DNA from: an uncultured Bdellovibrionales bacterium
GTDB lineage: Bacteria > Patescibacteriota > Minisyncoccia > Moranbacterales > UBA1568
NCBI GenBank assembly: GCA_964612055.1
Contig: CAZTBI010000004.1
Coordinates: forward strand, 1 to 58,844
Length of the DNA: 58,844 nucleotides
Direction of reading: 5' to 3'
Part shown: piece after piece, positions 45,236 to 51,708 of the stretch
How positions within the stretch are numbered: position 1 is the stretch's first letter
Layout of the letters: every line of letters begins with the position of its first letter
Translations under genes and position numbers: made by a program
The notes under the pieces: model-generated
Told to the model about the DNA's origin: nothing
Seen by the model: only the letters and a program-made list of their open reading frames with translations
Databases searched by the model: none

Positions 45236-45420
45236 AAACAAAAAATCCTTAACACAAAAATCGTGCTAAGGACGTTCGAAAACGTGGTACCACCTTGCTT
45301 CTCCATCCGCCAGCTGGCGGAGGACTTATTCGCAGCTATTACGGGCTTGCCCGCCAAGGTCTACTCGTCAAAATGACTTTCTTCTTGGAGCTCCGGGGTG
45401 ATTTTCCCCTTCATTGCCTT
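45236..45420 (-). promoter_or_regulatory. Ile T-box riboswitch with ultrashort stem I and intrinsic terminator
   Basis: GGGG-AAAATCA-CCCC specifier (ATC at 45400-45402), AGTA stem II, AAGG-TGGTACC-ACG...CGT-CCTT antiterminator, 10-bp terminator plus U tract. Confidence 0.92.
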
Positions 45421-45429
45421 TACAGGGTA

Positions 45430-45458
45430 ATAGTAGCAGGAGCAATCACTGAAATCAA
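45430..45458 (-). promoter_or_regulatory. sigma70 promoter of the T-box/ileS transcript
   Basis: TTGATT-N17-TACTAT with TGn, placing the start just before stem I. Confidence 0.65.
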
Positions 45459-46159
45459 CCCCTGATACCAACTTTTTTCACGACAACGGAAAAGCGCTCC
45501 ACTAATCCCCGCATCTCTTCATTCGAAAAAGAATGGTACGTTGCGAAAAGCGAATCAAGGGTGTGGCCTGGCCGGAACGTCTGGAGATAGTAACGCTTAG
45601 CACCAGAAAGCATCTCTTCCATATCTTTTAGAACTTTTTCATTATGAATCTCCTTGATCAGCGTGGTTCGGAACTCATAGGGAATACCAGATGCTTTCAG
45701 TAGCCTGATACTCTCTTCGATATTCTCTGGCTTCACCGTGCCACCAACCAATTTCGGATATTCGGCAAGCGAGGTCTTTACATCCATGGCCACATAATCG
45801 ACCAACCCCTGATCGAGAAGTACTCGCAACATCTCCGGATGATTGCCGTTGGTATCGAGTTTTGTGAGAAACCCCTTTTCCTTGATTCTCCGCAGAAACT
45901 CCGGCAGGTCACGCCAAATGGTCGGCTCGCCCCCTGATACCACCACCCCTTCCAAAAGCCCGCGCCGCTTGTCGAGAAAATTGAAAAATGCTTGCTCCTC
46001 GATGAAGTCAGCCTGCAGTTCCTGGATCTTTGCCGGCAGCACGAACTCCGGATTGTGGCAAAAGCCGCAACGCATATTGCACCCAGGAGTGAACGCGATA
46101 CACGCTACCCTTCCTGGGTAGTCGAGCATCGTGAATCGTTGGATAGCTGACAGCTTCAT
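45455..46159 (-). CDS. nrdG: Anaerobic RNR activating radical SAM enzyme
   Basis: GCNMRCGFCHNP (CxxxCxxC), SGGEPT, KLDTNG; adjacent to nrdD. Confidence 0.93.
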   Translation of the reverse strand: MKLSAIQRFTMLDYPGRVACIAFTPGCNMRCGFCHNPEFVLPAKIQELQADFIEEQAFFNFLDKRRGLLEGVVVSGGEPTIWRDLPEFLRRIKEKGFLTKLDTNGNHPEMLRVLLDQGLVDYVAMDVKTSLAEYPKLVGGTVKPENIEESIRLLKASGIPYEFRTTLIKEIHNEKVLKDMEEMLSGAKRYYLQTFRPGHTLDSLFATYHSFSNEEMRGLVERFSVVVKKVGIRG

Positions 46160-46350
46160 GCCTGGCCGTACTGCTTGGTGAAGACGGTATTGTCAGCTAC
46201 ACACTCCTCGAAATGTTTGCGCGAGTAATGCTCAGCCTTCTTGCCGATATTGAAGTGGGAGACGGGGCGATGATAGCCCATAACCCGGGTCCACACTTCA
46301 CAGCGGGTGCGCTTCTCGTTTCGTTCTGCTTGTATTTCTGTCTGCGTCAT
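46156..46350 (-). CDS. Stand-alone glycyl-radical domain of class III RNR (64 aa)
   Basis: RCEVWTRVMGYHRPVSHFNIGK is the NrdD C-terminal radical loop. Confidence 0.88.
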   Translation of the reverse strand: MTQTEIQAERNEKRTRCEVWTRVMGYHRPVSHFNIGKKAEHYSRKHFEECVADNTVFTKQYGQA

Positions 46351-46386
46351 AGATGTAGGGTTATATTTGTTAACTTGGTTGAAAGA

Positions 46387-48501
46387 CTATTTCTCAGCCG
46401 CGGTACTGGCGTAGGTCTTGCGATAAGTCTCGTCGAAACGTTCCCCACTGAGTCCTAGCTCCGTATCACACTTGGGACAAAAGTCATACTCACCGGAAAG
46501 ATAACCGTGTTTCGGGCAGATGGAGAATGTCGGCGTGATGGTGATATATGGCAATCGGTAACGAGTGAGGATTTTTTTCACGAGATTGCGGCAGGCTTCA
46601 GGCGTCGAAATCTTCTCGGTCATGTAGCAATGAAGCACCGTTCCACCCGTATACTTGGTCTGAAGGTCATCCTGCAAGTCGAGCACTTCGAAGACATCGT
46701 CCGTATAGCCCACTGGTACCTGGGAAGAGTTGGTGTAGTATGGCGCATCCGCAGTCCCGGCCTGAAGGATCTTAGGGAAACGCTTCTTGTCTTCCTTGGC
46801 GAAGCGGTAGGTCGTCCCTTCAGCAGGTGTCGCTTCCAGGTTATAGAAGCTCTTGGTCTCTTCCTGGAAGGATTTGATCTTCTCCTGCATATGAACCAGT
46901 ACTTCCAGGGCAAAAGTATGTCCCCAATCGGTCGTGATATTCTCCTTGTCGTCGGTGAAATTCCGGATCGCCTCGTTCAGGCCGTTGATCCCGATGGTCG
47001 AGAAATGATTCTTCAGGTAGCCCAAGTAGCGCTTGGTGTACGGGAAGAGTCCCCGGTCGATCCATTCTTGAATCACTTTGCGTTTGATCTCCAGTGACGT
47101 CTTGGCAAGCTCCATCAAGTGGTCGATCTGGGCATAGAACTTTTCCTTGTCACCTTTGGTAAGATAACCGATGCGAGCCGCATTCAAGGTCACTACCCCG
47201 ATGGATCCCGTCATCTCGGCCGAACCAAAGAGCCCGCCACCGCGCTTGCGCAGTTCCCGCAGATCGAGCTGCAGCCGGCAGCACATGGAACGGACATCGC
47301 CCGGATTGAGACTGGAATTCACGAAATTCTGGAAATACGGCGTGCCGTACTTGGCCGTCATCTGAAACAGCGGCAGATTCTTCTCACTCTCCCAATCGAA
47401 GTCCTTGCCGATATTGTAGGTCGGGATAGGAAAGGTGAAGGCTCGTCCCCTGGCATCGCCCTGGCTCATCACCGCGATGAAGGCCTGGTTGACGACATCC
47501 ATCTCGTGTCCCAGCTCACCAAACGTATACGCGAATGGTTTTCCGCCGAGAAGCAACCGTTTTTCTTTCAGGTCTTCCGGACAGTCCCAGTCGAGCGTGA
47601 TATTGGTGAACGGCGTCTGCGTCCCCCAACGCGAAGGGATGTTCAAGTTGAAAACAAAGGACTGAAGGTTCTGATAAACGTAGGCGTATACCTCGTCCTC
47701 GATGTATTTCTCTTTCGCTTCGTCCGAGATGAAGATCATGCCGTGCCTCTCCATATTCTCACGGAGCTCCAATTCGTACTTCTTCACGAAAGGTGCCATG
47801 TAGGTATCGAAACTGGAAAATGCCTGAGCTCCGGCCCACTCGTTCTGGAGCGTCCCCAAGAAGTTCACCATCTGCGACACAGCTGATGAGAGGTGCTTCG
47901 GAGGGCCGGACTCCACCTTGTTGTCGACACCGTTGAAACCTTCTTCGAGAAGCACACGGAGGCTCCAGCCGGCGCAGTAACCCGAGAACATGTCGAGGTC
48001 GTGGATGTGATAGTCGCCGTTGCGATGCGCCTCCCCAACGCTCTTCGGATAGATATGCGACAACCAATAGTTGGCGATGACGGAGCCTGCTGTATTCAGA
48101 ATGAGTCCGCCGAGCGAGTAGCCCTGATTGGAATTAGCATTGACGCGCCAGTCTGCTCGATTGAGATAATCAGCCACCGTCTTTTCTACCTCGACCACCA
48201 CATTCTTATCTGCTCGAGCCTCCCGACGTTTCTCACGATAGAGAATATAGGCTTTGGCCATCTCGGCATAGTCATAGCGGATGAGCACATCCTCCACGAC
48301 ATCCTGGATCTGCTCGACGGTTGGAATCTGATCGCTATACATATCTTCAAGCTCTACTTCTACTTCTTTGACCAATGTCTCAGGAATCACCTGATCCAAA
48401 TACCCAACTGCCTGTGCGGCCTTGACAATAGCATTCTTGATTTTCCCCAAATCAAAATCAACAATGGCTCCATTTCTCTTCTGTACTTTGTAGAGCGGCA
48501 T
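46387..48501 (-). CDS. nrdD: Class III anaerobic ribonucleotide reductase large subunit with ATP-cone, lacking the glycyl-radical loop
   Basis: KVQKRNG ATP-cone, HIHDL, RSMCCRL, NLEATPAEG, C-terminal CPKHG...CPKCD. Confidence 0.93.
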   Translation of the reverse strand: MPLYKVQKRNGAIVDFDLGKIKNAIVKAAQAVGYLDQVIPETLVKEVEVELEDMYSDQIPTVEQIQDVVEDVLIRYDYAEMAKAYILYREKRREARADKNVVVEVEKTVADYLNRADWRVNANSNQGYSLGGLILNTAGSVIANYWLSHIYPKSVGEAHRNGDYHIHDLDMFSGYCAGWSLRVLLEEGFNGVDNKVESGPPKHLSSAVSQMVNFLGTLQNEWAGAQAFSSFDTYMAPFVKKYELELRENMERHGMIFISDEAKEKYIEDEVYAYVYQNLQSFVFNLNIPSRWGTQTPFTNITLDWDCPEDLKEKRLLLGGKPFAYTFGELGHEMDVVNQAFIAVMSQGDARGRAFTFPIPTYNIGKDFDWESEKNLPLFQMTAKYGTPYFQNFVNSSLNPGDVRSMCCRLQLDLRELRKRGGGLFGSAEMTGSIGVVTLNAARIGYLTKGDKEKFYAQIDHLMELAKTSLEIKRKVIQEWIDRGLFPYTKRYLGYLKNHFSTIGINGLNEAIRNFTDDKENITTDWGHTFALEVLVHMQEKIKSFQEETKSFYNLEATPAEGTTYRFAKEDKKRFPKILQAGTADAPYYTNSSQVPVGYTDDVFEVLDLQDDLQTKYTGGTVLHCYMTEKISTPEACRNLVKKILTRYRLPYITITPTFSICPKHGYLSGEYDFCPKCDTELGLSGERFDETYRKTYASTAAEK

Positions 48502-48538
48502 ACGTTTTCATTACTATAATTACTGTCGAATACAATCA

Positions 48539-49144
48539 CTAGCAACCAAACTGGCCTTCCCCACAGGGAGCGGGAAGTTCTTTGGCTATCGGGATGCCAG
48601 GGGCACTTCCACTTATTACATATTCTTCTGGCTTGGTAATCGCCCACTCATGCTCGTGATTCCATGTCTCCCACCCGTACCGCCATTCGTTCCACCCAAT
48701 ACCCAGGTGCTTCACATAGATATCTTGTTCGGCAAGCATGAGGCCAATTTTTCTCCCTGTCATACAGGCCGTGCTGTAACAGTAGACAATAATATCTTTC
48801 TCTTTCGGAAGTGCCTGAAACTGACCAATGATACGCTCTTCCTCATCATAAGCGCTTGTATCTGGATCGCTATATGCTGGAATATTCACCGCTCCGACAA
48901 TATGCTCTTTCTCATACTCCACCGCACTCCGCAAGTCCACAAGTATAAAGCTCTTGTCCTGCTTGTCCATAAGTTTGCGTAAACCATGGGGACTGACTTT
49001 AACAGCATTTTCTACCCGGTAGTATTCGGCTATAGCATCTTCTTTCACTGGAGTCTTGAAACGCTCGGAAAGGAGTACTATATTTCCTCCCAGTAAAATA
49101 CCAAACAACACCGATACCCCCACTAATTTGATCTGCTCATTCAT
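48539..49144 (-). CDS. Membrane-anchored rhodanese-domain protein
   Basis: N-terminal TM; DLRS..EY...HI.GAVNIP, IVYCYSTAC, LGIGWNEW. Start trimmed to MNEQIK. Confidence 0.85.
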   Translation of the reverse strand: MNEQIKLVGVSVLFGILLGGNIVLLSERFKTPVKEDAIAEYYRVENAVKVSPHGLRKLMDKQDKSFILVDLRSAVEYEKEHIVGAVNIPAYSDPDTSAYDEEERIIGQFQALPKEKDIIVYCYSTACMTGRKIGLMLAEQDIYVKHLGIGWNEWRYGWETWNHEHEWAITKPEEYVISGSAPGIPIAKELPAPCGEGQFGC

Positions 49145-49188
49145 AACAATATTTCTAAGGATTACGAGAAATACTCTACATACTTTAT

Positions 49189-49216
49189 AAACACTAAAAA
49201 CAAAAAAAGGTGTCAA
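49189..49216 (-). promoter_or_regulatory. Bipartite motif TTGACACCTTTT-N9-AGTGTTT upstream of rhodanese-nrd unit
   Basis: Same motif recurs upstream of nirK at 51638-51666. Confidence 0.55.
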
Positions 49217-49226
49217 GACGACACCT
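49201..49226 (-). terminator. Terminator after PAS-ECF gene (overlaps the motif)
   Basis: AGGTGTC-GTCTT-GACACCT followed by a T run. Confidence 0.7.
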
Positions 49227-49253
49227 AAAGATCACGTGCAAGGTTTCTTCTCC

Positions 49254-50336
49254 TTAATTCCAAGCTTGTTTGATTTTTTTGCGCGTTCGACTCAAAATCA
49301 ATTTTACAGCATTTTCTGTCTTCCCTACCTGCTTGGCAATCTCTTTCACTTTGAGATCCTGCTCGTACCTCAGGAGCATAATCTTTCTTTCCATTTCAGA
49401 AAGAGGGGCCAAAAGATACCCTATGTTCCCACCATCTAACCCTGCCTGTTCGTCGAAGAGAGAGAGTGCTCGTTCGTCAGACAGAGGGAGGGTATCACAC
49501 TTTTTTTTGCGGTAGTAATTCACTAAAACACTATGACTCACTCGGAGAAGATAGGTATAGTAAGAAGCGTTCGTAATCCGAAATGAAGGGAGATAGCGGA
49601 AAGCCCTGGCAAATACTTCCTGATTCAGATCCTCAGCCAAAGCCTGATCCCCTCCAAGACGCCGTAAAAAATACTTCTGAAGGGTAGAGTAATATTTTTC
49701 ATAGAGCCGAGAGAAGTGTTCTGGATTTTTTTGAGCAGCCTGAATCAAAGGTGCATCCTCAAAACGTCGGAAAAGTACTTGCTCAGTAGGAGCAATCAAT
49801 TCTTCATAGAAGAACGTGACAGGATTAATGATAGTCTCGCTAAGAGACGAGGTACCCGGTACTAGTACGCCGTCTTTCTTTTTTCGTAGAGCATCAAAAA
49901 CCCAAACAAGCGTTTGACTGTCTGTATGAAATTTCTTTGCCTGTGATAAGAAAGATCGAACAAACGACTGAGACTCTTTTTCTGTCACAAACTCTGGATG
50001 AAAGGCAGCAAAATAACGAGTCGTTCCTGTCTCATCCTTGAGAGGGGCAATGCAAAGTAAATCTTCTTGGAATTGTCCGTTTTTTTTCACGTTCTGTACC
50101 ATGCCCACAAAAGGCCTCCCTTCTGTATCAATAGTTTTCCACAATAACTGATAAAATTCCTTGTTCATGTGACCACCCCAAAGTTCCCCTGGCTTCTTCC
50201 CAACTATCTCGGCCAAAGAAAATCCCGTACGTCGCTCAAAGGCACCGCTCACATACACCACTCGCGATGAGATATCGGTGATTAAAAGCCCGCCCGGTAA
50301 TATATCAAGGACTTGTTTGAATGAAGGGGAAGTCAT
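49254..50336 (-). CDS. PAS domain fused to an ECF sigma factor
   Basis: N-terminal ITD..YVS.AF...TGFS..EIVGKKP...FYQ.LW.TI (PAS); C-terminal AEDLNQEVF.RAF, YL.R.....LVNYYRK (region 2), LS..ER.I..LRY......EIA...G.....VK..LSR (region 4). Confidence 0.9.
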   Translation of the reverse strand: MTSPSFKQVLDILPGGLLITDISSRVVYVSGAFERRTGFSLAEIVGKKPGELWGGHMNKEFYQLLWKTIDTEGRPFVGMVQNVKKNGQFQEDLLCIAPLKDETGTTRYFAAFHPEFVTEKESQSFVRSFLSQAKKFHTDSQTLVWVFDALRKKKDGVLVPGTSSLSETIINPVTFFYEELIAPTEQVLFRRFEDAPLIQAAQKNPEHFSRLYEKYYSTLQKYFLRRLGGDQALAEDLNQEVFARAFRYLPSFRITNASYYTYLLRVSHSVLVNYYRKKKCDTLPLSDERALSLFDEQAGLDGGNIGYLLAPLSEMERKIMLLRYEQDLKVKEIAKQVGKTENAVKLILSRTRKKIKQAWN

Positions 50337-50382
50337 AGTGAAAACTTTCTCCCTATCATATCACAATCACCAAAATCACAGA

Positions 50383-51603
50383 CTAGTGACCGCTGTGTAC
50401 GCTAGGATTTACTGTTCCAGAAAAAATGTCTGGTCTTTCGGCTCCAGAAACGGTGAGCACCCCCCAAGCACCCCTATCTGCCCGAGTCAGAGCATGATCT
50501 ACCAAAATATAGTCTCCGGGTACCTCTGGAACAAACTCCATGATGCCAGCTCCGCCCGGCGGGATAAGGGTGGTTTGGATATTGTGATGCAGATCACTCC
50601 CAATACCACCTTCCGGATAAACAGTATCAAAAATTTCTCCAATAAGATGGAAAGATGATACTAAATTTACTCCACCATTTCCAACAAAGAAGCGTACCGT
50701 TTCTCCTGTTTCCACCTTCATGTTCCGAAGCAAAGAATGGATCTTGCCGTTAAAGAAAATATACTGTGGATGACTATCAAGCATAGCTTGACCATCAAAG
50801 ACTTGCATTCCCTTCTTACCAAGATTTCCTTTGGTATACATCTCCCCTTGCATGATATAAAACTCTTTGTCCACTTTTGAGAGACCCTCCTTTGGTTCCA
50901 CGAGAATCATTCCGTACATTCCATGAGCCATATGAGTAGCTACATTGGTCATGGCGCAGTGATAGACATACAGCCCTGGGTTGAGTGCTTGAAAAGAAAA
51001 AGATTTGCTCTCGCCAGGAAGCACTGTGGTTACCCCTGCTCCCCCGCCCGGCCCAGTCACCGCATGAAAATCTACATTATGAGGATGAACACTTGTTTCG
51101 TGGTTCTTCACGGTCACCTCTACTTGATCACCCTCCCGCACCCGGACAAAGGGTCCAGGGACTTTCCCATTAAATGTCCAGGCATTCATAAAAATCCCGG
51201 GGGCAATTTCCGTAATAACTTCTTTAGTCTCAAGATTGACCCGTACCACTTCTGCGTGATCACGTTCTAGAGGTGCCGGGATATCATTTGGATCATATGA
51301 AATATTACCTACTCGTTCAAAATCATTAAAGTTTTTGAAAAATCGTACCATATGGTCTAGATGAAATGAGGGAGGAATGCCAGGTCCAAAGGTAGTCATA
51401 AACAGAGGGTACTCCATTGTATTAGGAAGTACCTGAGCAGAAAAATAGAAGATGCCCATTCCTACTAAGAAAAGAGTCGTAAAGAACATCCTTGTTTTAG
51501 TAATAAAAAAAGACCGAAAAAATCCAACAACACCTCCTAGCGCCAAAATGATACCAACAATCTGCAAGACTAAAACTCGAAAAAACTGGAGAAAAGAACC
51601 CAT
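50383..51603 (-). CDS. nirK: Copper-containing nitrite reductase with two N-terminal TM helices
   Basis: FNGKVPGP, HNVDFH, YHCA...ATHMAHGMYG, SSFHLIGEIFD, VDHAL: type 1 and type 2 Cu ligands plus catalytic D/H present. Confidence 0.93.
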   Translation of the reverse strand: MGSFLQFFRVLVLQIVGIILALGGVVGFFRSFFITKTRMFFTTLFLVGMGIFYFSAQVLPNTMEYPLFMTTFGPGIPPSFHLDHMVRFFKNFNDFERVGNISYDPNDIPAPLERDHAEVVRVNLETKEVITEIAPGIFMNAWTFNGKVPGPFVRVREGDQVEVTVKNHETSVHPHNVDFHAVTGPGGGAGVTTVLPGESKSFSFQALNPGLYVYHCAMTNVATHMAHGMYGMILVEPKEGLSKVDKEFYIMQGEMYTKGNLGKKGMQVFDGQAMLDSHPQYIFFNGKIHSLLRNMKVETGETVRFFVGNGGVNLVSSFHLIGEIFDTVYPEGGIGSDLHHNIQTTLIPPGGAGIMEFVPEVPGDYILVDHALTRADRGAWGVLTVSGAERPDIFSGTVNPSVHSGH

Positions 51604-51637
51604 ATTTAAAAGGTTAAGAATAAATCTCTATAAAGAG

Positions 51638-51666
51638 AAACACTTTTCTTACCCAAAAGGTGTCAA
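51638..51666 (-). promoter_or_regulatory. Bipartite motif TTGACACCTTTT-N10-AGTGTTT upstream of nirK-PAS/ECF unit
   Basis: 19 nt shared with 49189-49216. Confidence 0.55.
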
Positions 51667-51668
51667 AG

Positions 51669-51702
51669 AAAAAAGCGGCTGGGATCAATGATCCAAACCG
51701 CT
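51669..51702 (-). terminator. Terminator after SLT-like gene
   Basis: AGCGG..GGATC-ATT-GATCC..CCGCT followed by a T run. Confidence 0.7.
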
Positions 51703-51708
51703 CGGTTG

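Follow-up and report, generated by a model that had tools for sequence, protein, structure and literature searches.

The DNA considered here, referred to below as the window, is a 58,844-nt contig (C4; CAZTBI010000004.1) of the 0.94-Mb genome of an uncultured bacterium of the Moranbacterales (GCA_964612055.1; 941,749 bp in 7 contigs, 99.8 % complete). Between positions 45455 and 51603 the list of open reading frames (ORFs) and their translations give six ORFs lying head to tail, all on the minus strand. In the order of transcription they encode a copper nitrite reductase (NirK), an extracytoplasmic function (ECF) sigma factor fused to a PAS domain (hereafter PAS-ECF), a rhodanese-domain protein, a class III ribonucleotide reductase (RNR) in two pieces (NrdD) and its activase (NrdG). 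A sequence-only reading of the window had described six co-oriented genes in two units, with nirK and the sigma gene in one and rhodanese, split nrdD and nrdG in the other. All six ORFs were confirmed at their places on the minus strand, and each of the gene identities is backed by profile searches. From upstream to downstream, the features of the locus are as follows.

51667–51703, minus strand: intrinsic terminator of the upstream SLT-like gene (minimum free energy −24.6 kcal/mol, z −2.6)
51635–51666, minus strand: nirK-side ECF-type promoter element, TTGACAC-C-TTTT...AGTGTTTC (21.9 bits, genome rank 2)
50383–51603, minus strand: nirK, copper nitrite reductase (TIGR02376, 332.6 bits against a cutoff of 296.3)
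50355–50363, minus strand: housekeeping-type extended −10 sequence TGATATGAT, within the 46-nt gap between nirK and the sigma gene
49254–50336, minus strand: PAS-ECF sigma factor, 360 aa (PAS/PAS_9, Sigma70_r2 and r4_2; TIGR02937, 70.5 bits against 42.9)
49199–49226, minus strand: terminator hairpin of the sigma gene by folding, AGGTGTC-GTCTT-GACACCT with a U-tract, 7–8 bp
49186–49216, minus strand: nrd-side ECF-type promoter element, TTGACAC-C-TTTTTTT...AGTGTTTA (23.2 bits, genome rank 1)
48539–49144, minus strand: rhodanese-domain protein with an N-terminal membrane helix (PF00581, 53 bits)
46387–48501, minus strand: nrdD large subunit, 704 aa, ending at TAG (NF006126, 1077 bits against 548)
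46156–46350, minus strand: nrdD small subunit, the 64-aa glycyl-radical piece RCEVWTRVMGYHRP, with RVMGY (matches the last ~30 positions of NrdD models only)
45455–46159, minus strand: nrdG, radical S-adenosylmethionine (SAM) activase (TIGR02495, 202 bits against 131)

The terminator of the SLT-like gene, whose 10-bp stem has one mismatch and an AUU loop and precedes a U-tract, sets the 5' boundary of the nirK unit. The ligand and catalytic motifs HNVDFH, HC-x7-H-x4-M, FHLIG and DHAL are readable in the translation of nirK and identify the product as a NirK, which begins with two N-terminal hydrophobic helices. Both the 46-nt gap between nirK and the sigma gene and a terminator after the sigma gene had been remarked on from the sequence; on folding, the gap proved unstructured, without a stable hairpin, and the hairpin with its T-run was found at 49226–49208. 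The ATG of nrdG overlaps the stop codon of the nrdD small subunit.

A conserved module and its promoter-like element

The 12-mer TTGACACCTTTT has two occurrences, one before each unit, at minus-strand positions 49216 and 51666; neither the rest of the window nor the rest of the genome holds another, so that the two units do begin with the same motif, as had been observed. Both copies continue into AGTGTTT after 9–10 nt. A single-sequence search for related loci with the sigma factor returned two distant ECF sigma factors only, and the copies in the genus came from genome searches. Of the 37 genus genomes, 18 carry a full-length PAS-ECF gene (40–57 % identity); a sample of 24 genomes from the order's other families yielded none. 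Gene order was judged from about 17 kb around each genus copy, where the contig permits. PAS-ECF, nrdD large subunit, nrdD small subunit and nrdG follow one another in this order at all 16 assessable genus loci, and the same order is found with all six more distant homologues (36–41 % identity), which have unrelated flanks and one of which is labelled Magasanikbacteria. Taken more widely, the gene order of the closer relatives runs ArgS, HisPhos, (SLT-like), PAS-ECF, nrdD, nrdG, IleS. The sequence-only reading had made its case depend on co-location in relatives: the four-gene core stands together at 22/22 loci, but the six-gene block does not recur. Judged from these gene orders, the conserved module is PAS-ECF, promoter element, split nrdD and nrdG, and nirK and rhodanese are its recent, lineage-specific recruits.

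The promoter element itself lies between the sigma gene and nrdD at 17/17 genus loci and at the 5/5 distant loci with DNA, which together span 36–58 % sigma identity and differ in their flanks, and has the sequence (A/T)TGACAC-C-TTTT...(G/C)(T/C)GTTTA(A/T). In an anchored alignment both boxes and the T-tract are near-invariant, and the positions 20 nt either side carry no information; orientation is constant and spacing fixed across loci. At most loci GGTGTC upstream pairs with GACACC to form the terminator of the sigma gene, with a loop of 3–5 nt, and the 3' arm of the nrd-side terminator is the −35 box of the next promoter element. Two related loci (L028 and L072) keep the element but lack the hairpin arm; the nirK copy lacks this arm as well, and so do copies upstream of a membrane protein gene described below. 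At L076 about 700 nt separate the element from the stop codon of the sigma gene, and about 200 nt separate it from nrdD. Because it is kept without the hairpin arm and far from the sigma stop, the element is not merely a terminator. What is conserved is, on this comparison, the bipartite element, with the terminator, where present, built over its −35 box.

The spacer between TGACAC and (C/T)GTTTA is 16 nt, or 17 nt in a few sites, and 16 nt is also the spacer of promoters read by sigma W of Bacillus subtilis. In common with the sigma W, M, X and V promoters of that organism, the element has a −35 box ending in AC, followed by one base and a T-tract, and a −10 box starting (C/T)GT; the boxes here, however, are TGACAC and GTTTA, and their recognition by PAS-ECF is a prediction. 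The ECF promoters of B. subtilis have the form tGAAACnTTTt...CGTA/CGTC, and a homopolymeric T-tract near the −35 box aids their recognition (PMC5758882); compared with these, the sites at the 22 related loci and the two sites here have the form of ECF promoters. At the spacing of a sigma-70 promoter, 17 nt from the hexamer, the element has TGTTTA, a 2/6 match to TATAAT, and no TATAAT box. The housekeeping promoters of the lineage are canonical, for example TTGAAA-N17-TATACT upstream of nirK in another genus genome (G030). In its bases, then, the element has the look of an ECF promoter and not of a housekeeping one.

The PAS-ECF protein

PAS-ECF comprises a PAS domain (residues 1–115), a helical linker (119–187), sigma region 2 (189–281), a disordered linker and sigma region 4 (305–359). 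With regions 2 and 4 present (PF04542 and PF08281) and regions 1.1 and 3 absent, it belongs to the group 4 (ECF) sigma factors. An anti-sigma gene, usual but not required beside an ECF sigma gene, adjoins it in no locus, the flanking genes being nirK, HisPhos or SLT-like upstream and nrdD downstream. In nearly all relatives a housekeeping promoter, TGnTATGAT or GTGTATGAT, lies upstream of the sigma gene, as it does here at 50355–50363. About 228 database clusters have the PAS-ECF architecture, all of them named just sigma-70 family proteins, and the source names of closely related proteins are Candidatus Moranbacteria.

Fused extra domains are known from ECF41, ECF42 and ECF44, which carry C-terminal extensions, and from BldN of ECF121, which carries an N-terminal one. 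PAS-ECF has in common with these a core of sigma 2 and sigma 4, no adjacent anti-sigma, a fused domain presumed to gate activity and a small dedicated regulon beside the sigma gene. The extension of PAS-ECF differs in being N-terminal and of about 190 residues, made up of a full PAS sensor and a helical linker of about 70 residues. According to the ECF reviews searched and the 2021 reclassification, N-terminal extensions are rarer and generally shorter, BldN being the sole well-described case, and the main texts of these sources contain no mention of a PAS-fused ECF.

The AlphaFold model of the protein was built from 45 homologues (predicted local distance difference test, pLDDT, 86; predicted template-modelling score, pTM, 0.68). 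Searched with phmmer against PDB sequences, the PAS domain matched best the first PAS domain of NifL, which binds flavin adenine dinucleotide (3e-12), and MmoS (5.5e-12), likewise a redox sensor with that cofactor, with LOV domains, which bind flavin mononucleotide, next. Foldseek placed the domain model on NifL (2gj3; template-modelling score (TM) 0.81, root-mean-square deviation 2.0 Å) and on CagFbFP (TM ~0.85). Overall the sensor is 28–30 % identical to NifL PAS1, MmoS and LOV domains, at 2.0 Å and a TM of ~0.8, and W66 and N82 of PAS-ECF align with W87 and N102 of NifL. The signature GKKPGELWGG.M...Y...W...N is invariant in the 45 homologues, among which the PAS domain has no invariant His or Cys. 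Modelled fold and sequence both place the PAS domain with the flavin type of NifL and LOV; a flavin would be the best guess for its cofactor, and oxygen or redox state the most plausible signal. The output differs, being a sigma factor in PAS-ECF and a kinase-like, STAS or helix-turn-helix module in the NifL, MmoS and LOV proteins.

The split reductase and the recruited genes

The NrdD barrel, the motif RVMGY on a separate 64-aa ORF and the radical-SAM activase together identify the enzyme as a class III RNR. The large subunit has an ATP-cone, a Cys/His zinc site and a barrel whose finger loop reads MCCR, the type with two cysteines that has been linked to reduction dependent on thiols (PMC9669993). 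Here one in-frame TAG, with 12 codons after it, interrupts nrdD. The gene is split in all 27 related loci examined across the order, none of which has the single-polypeptide form. These loci vary in stop codon (TAA, TAG or TGA), in spacer (from an overlap to 173 nt) and in relative frame, all three being used, and at L076 a dihydroorotate dehydrogenase gene lies between the halves. In the database, 4,668 small proteins corresponding to the NrdD C-terminus stand alone. We reject readthrough or recoding at the TAG, there being no suppressor tRNA among the 44 tRNAs and the relatives showing varied stops, spacers and frames and an intervening gene; a pseudogene or sequencing error is ruled out by the same variation between loci and by the stand-alone small ORFs. 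From these comparisons we take the split to be natural and the in-frame arrangement here to be a coincidence. We found no account of such an nrdD split in the RNR literature searched. Across the order (L015–L045, L070–L077) the two-piece enzyme pairs a large subunit (about 705 aa) with a glycyl-radical subunit (55–120 aa), and the cut falls after the zinc site in this genus and before it in two other families (L044, L045).

The genome also encodes a class I NrdA (TIGR02506, 539 bits), immediately downstream of which lies, by inspection, an NrdB-like gene, and it encodes NrdR. Searches of 23 genus genomes found an NrdA domain in 22. As an accessory gene, nrdD is carried by 25 of the 37 genomes in the genus. 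In genomes G038–G050, which belong to other families of the order, nrdR takes the slot of PAS-ECF directly upstream of nrdD. Single NrdR-box palindromes (e.g. ACACTATATATAGTGT) are found just upstream of the element in the sigma-positive clade L024–L029, and at the sigma-negative loci L035–L041 NrdR boxes overlap the housekeeping −10 box upstream of nrdD; near the nrd operon of this window no NrdR box was found. At L024–L030, L035, L037 and L040 the 5' leader of nrdD contains, downstream of the promoter, a terminator-like hairpin, for example GACGCTTC-GGGG-GAAGTCGTTTTTTCTTCTC. It is conserved, about 60–120 nt upstream of nrdD, and absent here, where rhodanese fills the leader; it may be an attenuator, since it occurs in sigma-positive and sigma-negative genomes alike.

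The rhodanese gene is found in this genome only (1 of 37 in the genus) and is absent from the 36 others and from all related loci; it is a genome-specific insertion between the promoter element and nrdD. We place its start at the ATG at 49144, not at the TTG at 49216, because the latter falls inside the terminator. The active-site loop VYCYSTACMTGRK has two Cys in an unusual stretch, the C-terminus carries CGEGQFGC, and the weak NCBIfam matches are to rhodanese-type selenoprotein families.

In Parcubacteria and the Candidate Phyla Radiation (CPR), NirK is already known (Danczak et al., 2017; PMC5581439). Like the CPR enzymes of that report, the copper nitrite reductase here is an orphan, unaccompanied by downstream steps of denitrification, and the heme-copper oxidase/NorB family (PF00115) is absent from this genome. 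Regulation is not discussed in that report, whereas nirK here has a copy of the nrd promoter and is predicted to be co-transcribed with the sigma gene. The gene occurs in 4 of 37 genus genomes and lies beside the sigma gene in no relative. Its copy of the element, specific to this genome, is about 30 nt upstream of the ATG, in the right orientation and directly past a strong terminator. In the other genome with both genes (G034), nirK closes the nrd operon, its start lying 17 nt past nrdG; in the sigma-less genomes G028 and G030 it sits elsewhere, without the element. The proposed coupling of nirK to the sigma factor therefore survives in part: the two are neighbours here alone, yet nirK has the same promoter type in both genomes that hold nirK and the sigma gene. 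No terminator was found when the 46-nt gap between nirK and the sigma gene was folded, and because none separates them we predict positive feedback on the sigma factor, in this genome alone.

A weight matrix made from the nrdD-upstream sites of relatives only was run on this genome. The nrd site ranked first (23.2 bits) and the nirK site second (21.9), and the third was intragenic. Simple shuffles made the score look strong, and block shuffles, which preserve composition, lowered its significance: with about 0.17 chance matches of at least 21.9 bits per shuffled genome, the score is by itself only moderately significant. From this rate we estimate by arithmetic that a correctly oriented match would fall by chance in the 105-nt gap upstream of nirK with a probability of about 1e-5. 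As the score alone is modest, the argument for the nirK site rests on position, orientation and conservation.

An Rfam scan of the intergenic regions gave no known RNA element above threshold, and one chance U6 match. At 45265–45423 on the minus strand, 5' of ileS, lies a putative T-box leader (RF00230, E 9e-11), whose 57.6 bits fall short of the gathering score, 93.

The proposed circuit and its alternatives

Our current working hypothesis, which we hold to be likely, is that a one-component ECF sigma factor, probably gated by flavin or redox state, turns on the class III RNR and, in this genome, nirK and itself as well. That this sigma factor reads this promoter element we regard as scarcely less likely; the nature of the signal is put forward with lower confidence than this pairing. 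The sigma gene would be transcribed from its own housekeeping promoter (TG and a TATGAT box), and the active sigma factor would steer RNA polymerase to the promoter TGACAC-C-TTTT...(C/T)GTTTA just past its own terminator, which would drive the genes of the two-piece class III RNR and nrdG. In this genome rhodanese would have been inserted behind that promoter and a second promoter copy would stand before nirK, from which readthrough would boost synthesis of the sigma factor itself; a third, weaker site would serve an unlinked gene for a 268-aa membrane protein (MP268). The oxygen-labile class III RNR would then be switched on when the PAS domain reports a reducing or anoxic state, beside the oxygen-dependent class I NrdAB. 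An oxygen-labile enzyme under an oxygen- or redox-gated sigma factor would make a coherent design. More tentatively, we suggest that the flavin-PAS-ECF acts as a directly oxygen- or redox-gated switch between class I and class III RNR in CPR bacteria of the Moranbacteria and Magasanikbacteria type, into which nirK has been captured here, with positive feedback.

The sequence-only reading, which had proposed a one-component PAS-sigma with a small redox-related regulon including nrdDG, is thus partly supported and right in kind. Its tie between a one-component PAS-ECF and anaerobic deoxyribonucleotide synthesis is upheld by the linkage to nrdDG, by the ECF-type promoter lying between them, by the absence of an adjacent anti-sigma gene and by the NifL/LOV type of the PAS domain. 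Of the larger proposal, that the sigma factor couples nitrite reduction to this synthesis, the nrdDG link is conserved in all assessable loci and the nitrite part stands only partially.

If the element were read by some other factor, either another ECF-like sigma factor or a dimeric regulator binding ACACC-N13-GGTGT, PAS-ECF would be a mere neighbour. We think this unlikely, although there are other ECF-like genes in the genome, the two boxes are mutually reverse complementary and the relatives have no autoregulatory copy of the element before the sigma gene. The orientation of the element to the downstream gene is constant and its asymmetry (TGACACC distal, AAACACC proximal) invariant, it has the ECF form with a T-tract (PMC5758882), and apart from it nrdD has no other conserved promoter in these loci. 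Further, the element is confined to genomes with PAS-ECF. In seven genus genomes nrdD (78–80 % identity) occurs without PAS-ECF, and none of the seven has an intact element. Three of these have a legible nrdD promoter, TGnTATAAT overlapped by an NrdR box, and others show decayed remnants of the element, such as TGATACCTTTTT and, at L035 and L037 (genomes G003 and G025), TGATACCTTTTTCTTTTT and CGATACATTTTTCGTTTTTGG, which are consistent with relaxed selection following loss of the sigma factor. Other ECF-like sigma factors persist in genomes that lack an intact element, and for this reason would be poor readers of it.

A test away from the nrd locus is offered by MP268, where an element without a hairpin arm lies 45–60 nt upstream of the gene in five other genomes (G002, G013, G015, G020 and G034) and in this one, at C1:103945 on the minus strand. 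The site here has CGTTTA in its −10 box, a variant seen also upstream of nrdD at L076 and L077. The element is present at MP268 in 6/14 sigma-positive and 0/6 sigma-negative genomes. MP268 itself (G000 C1:103078–103881, minus strand) is a conserved polytopic protein whose gene is followed by one for a HAD hydrolase and adjoins Mrp/NuoD-like genes; a search of the family gave no Pfam or NCBIfam match.

A second alternative, that the element would be a promoter of the housekeeping type whose −35 box is TTGACA and whose −10 box is poor, aided or repressed by NrdR or another factor, with PAS-ECF acting indirectly, for example through sigma competition, seems to us improbable. TTGACA/ATGACA is a near-perfect sigma-70 −35 hexamer, NrdR boxes do lie just upstream of the element in the L024–L029 clade, and NrdR is encoded in the genome. 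Against this, the true housekeeping promoters of these genomes have TGnTATAAT or TATGAT where the element offers its 2/6 match, the invariant bases reach past the hexamer (C-TTTT) and take in GTTTA, and the nrd operon of this window has no NrdR box near it. Least probable of all is a shared motif of no regulatory meaning, the nrd copy being a terminator whose 3' arm and U-tract make up most of the motif, and the nirK copy a chance match of the kind expected in block-shuffled genomes, or a passenger on the insertion of a nirK that most relatives lack: the element is kept without a hairpin arm at L028, L072 and the MP268 sites of five other genomes, it is the sequence of the 3' arm that is invariant while loop length varies, although terminators normally conserve structure, and the nirK copy is placed and oriented where a promoter is needed.

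Several observations speak against our working hypothesis. An invariant proline (Pro49) stands in PAS-ECF in place of the LOV cysteine or Glu70 of NifL (GKKPGEL against GKNESIL and GRNCRFL); as both residues are missing, flavin binding and the signal are putative. PAS-ECF is not autoregulated in relatives, whose sigma genes have no copy of the element in front of them; in this it differs from most ECF sigma factors, including those with extensions. Three further ECF-like genes of this genome encode possible readers of the element, and since its boxes make up an inverted repeat (ACACC-N13-GGTGT), recognition by a dimeric DNA-binding protein is conceivable. The co-occurrence of element and sigma gene is partly co-inheritance and no independent test, because the two adjoin; MP268 provides the one unlinked test, and its distribution is suggestive but weak alone. 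The rate at which block-shuffled genomes match the score of the nirK site belongs here as well.

In Escherichia coli, nrdDG is controlled by FNR. The circuit proposed here would have in common with control by FNR or NrdR an oxygen-responsive induction of class III RNR beside a class I RNR, and NrdR boxes sit alongside the element in some relatives; the control, however, would be exerted through promoter recognition by a sigma factor, with no activator or repressor. CPR/Patescibacteria are usually described as minimally regulated. In PAS-ECF the sequence lets one read a fusion of sensor and sigma factor, a predicted promoter and a regulon comprising one to three promoters, all conserved over wide divergence, and with them a full signal-to-promoter circuit of an uncultivated lineage becomes testable in a laboratory host. 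Compact, orthogonal and possibly oxygen-responsive pairs of sigma factor and promoter may also serve as parts for synthetic biology. For the biology of these bacteria, the circuit would provide a first regulatory context for the orphan nirK of the CPR, and it suggests that the choice between oxygen-dependent and oxygen-labile RNRs may be made without FNR.

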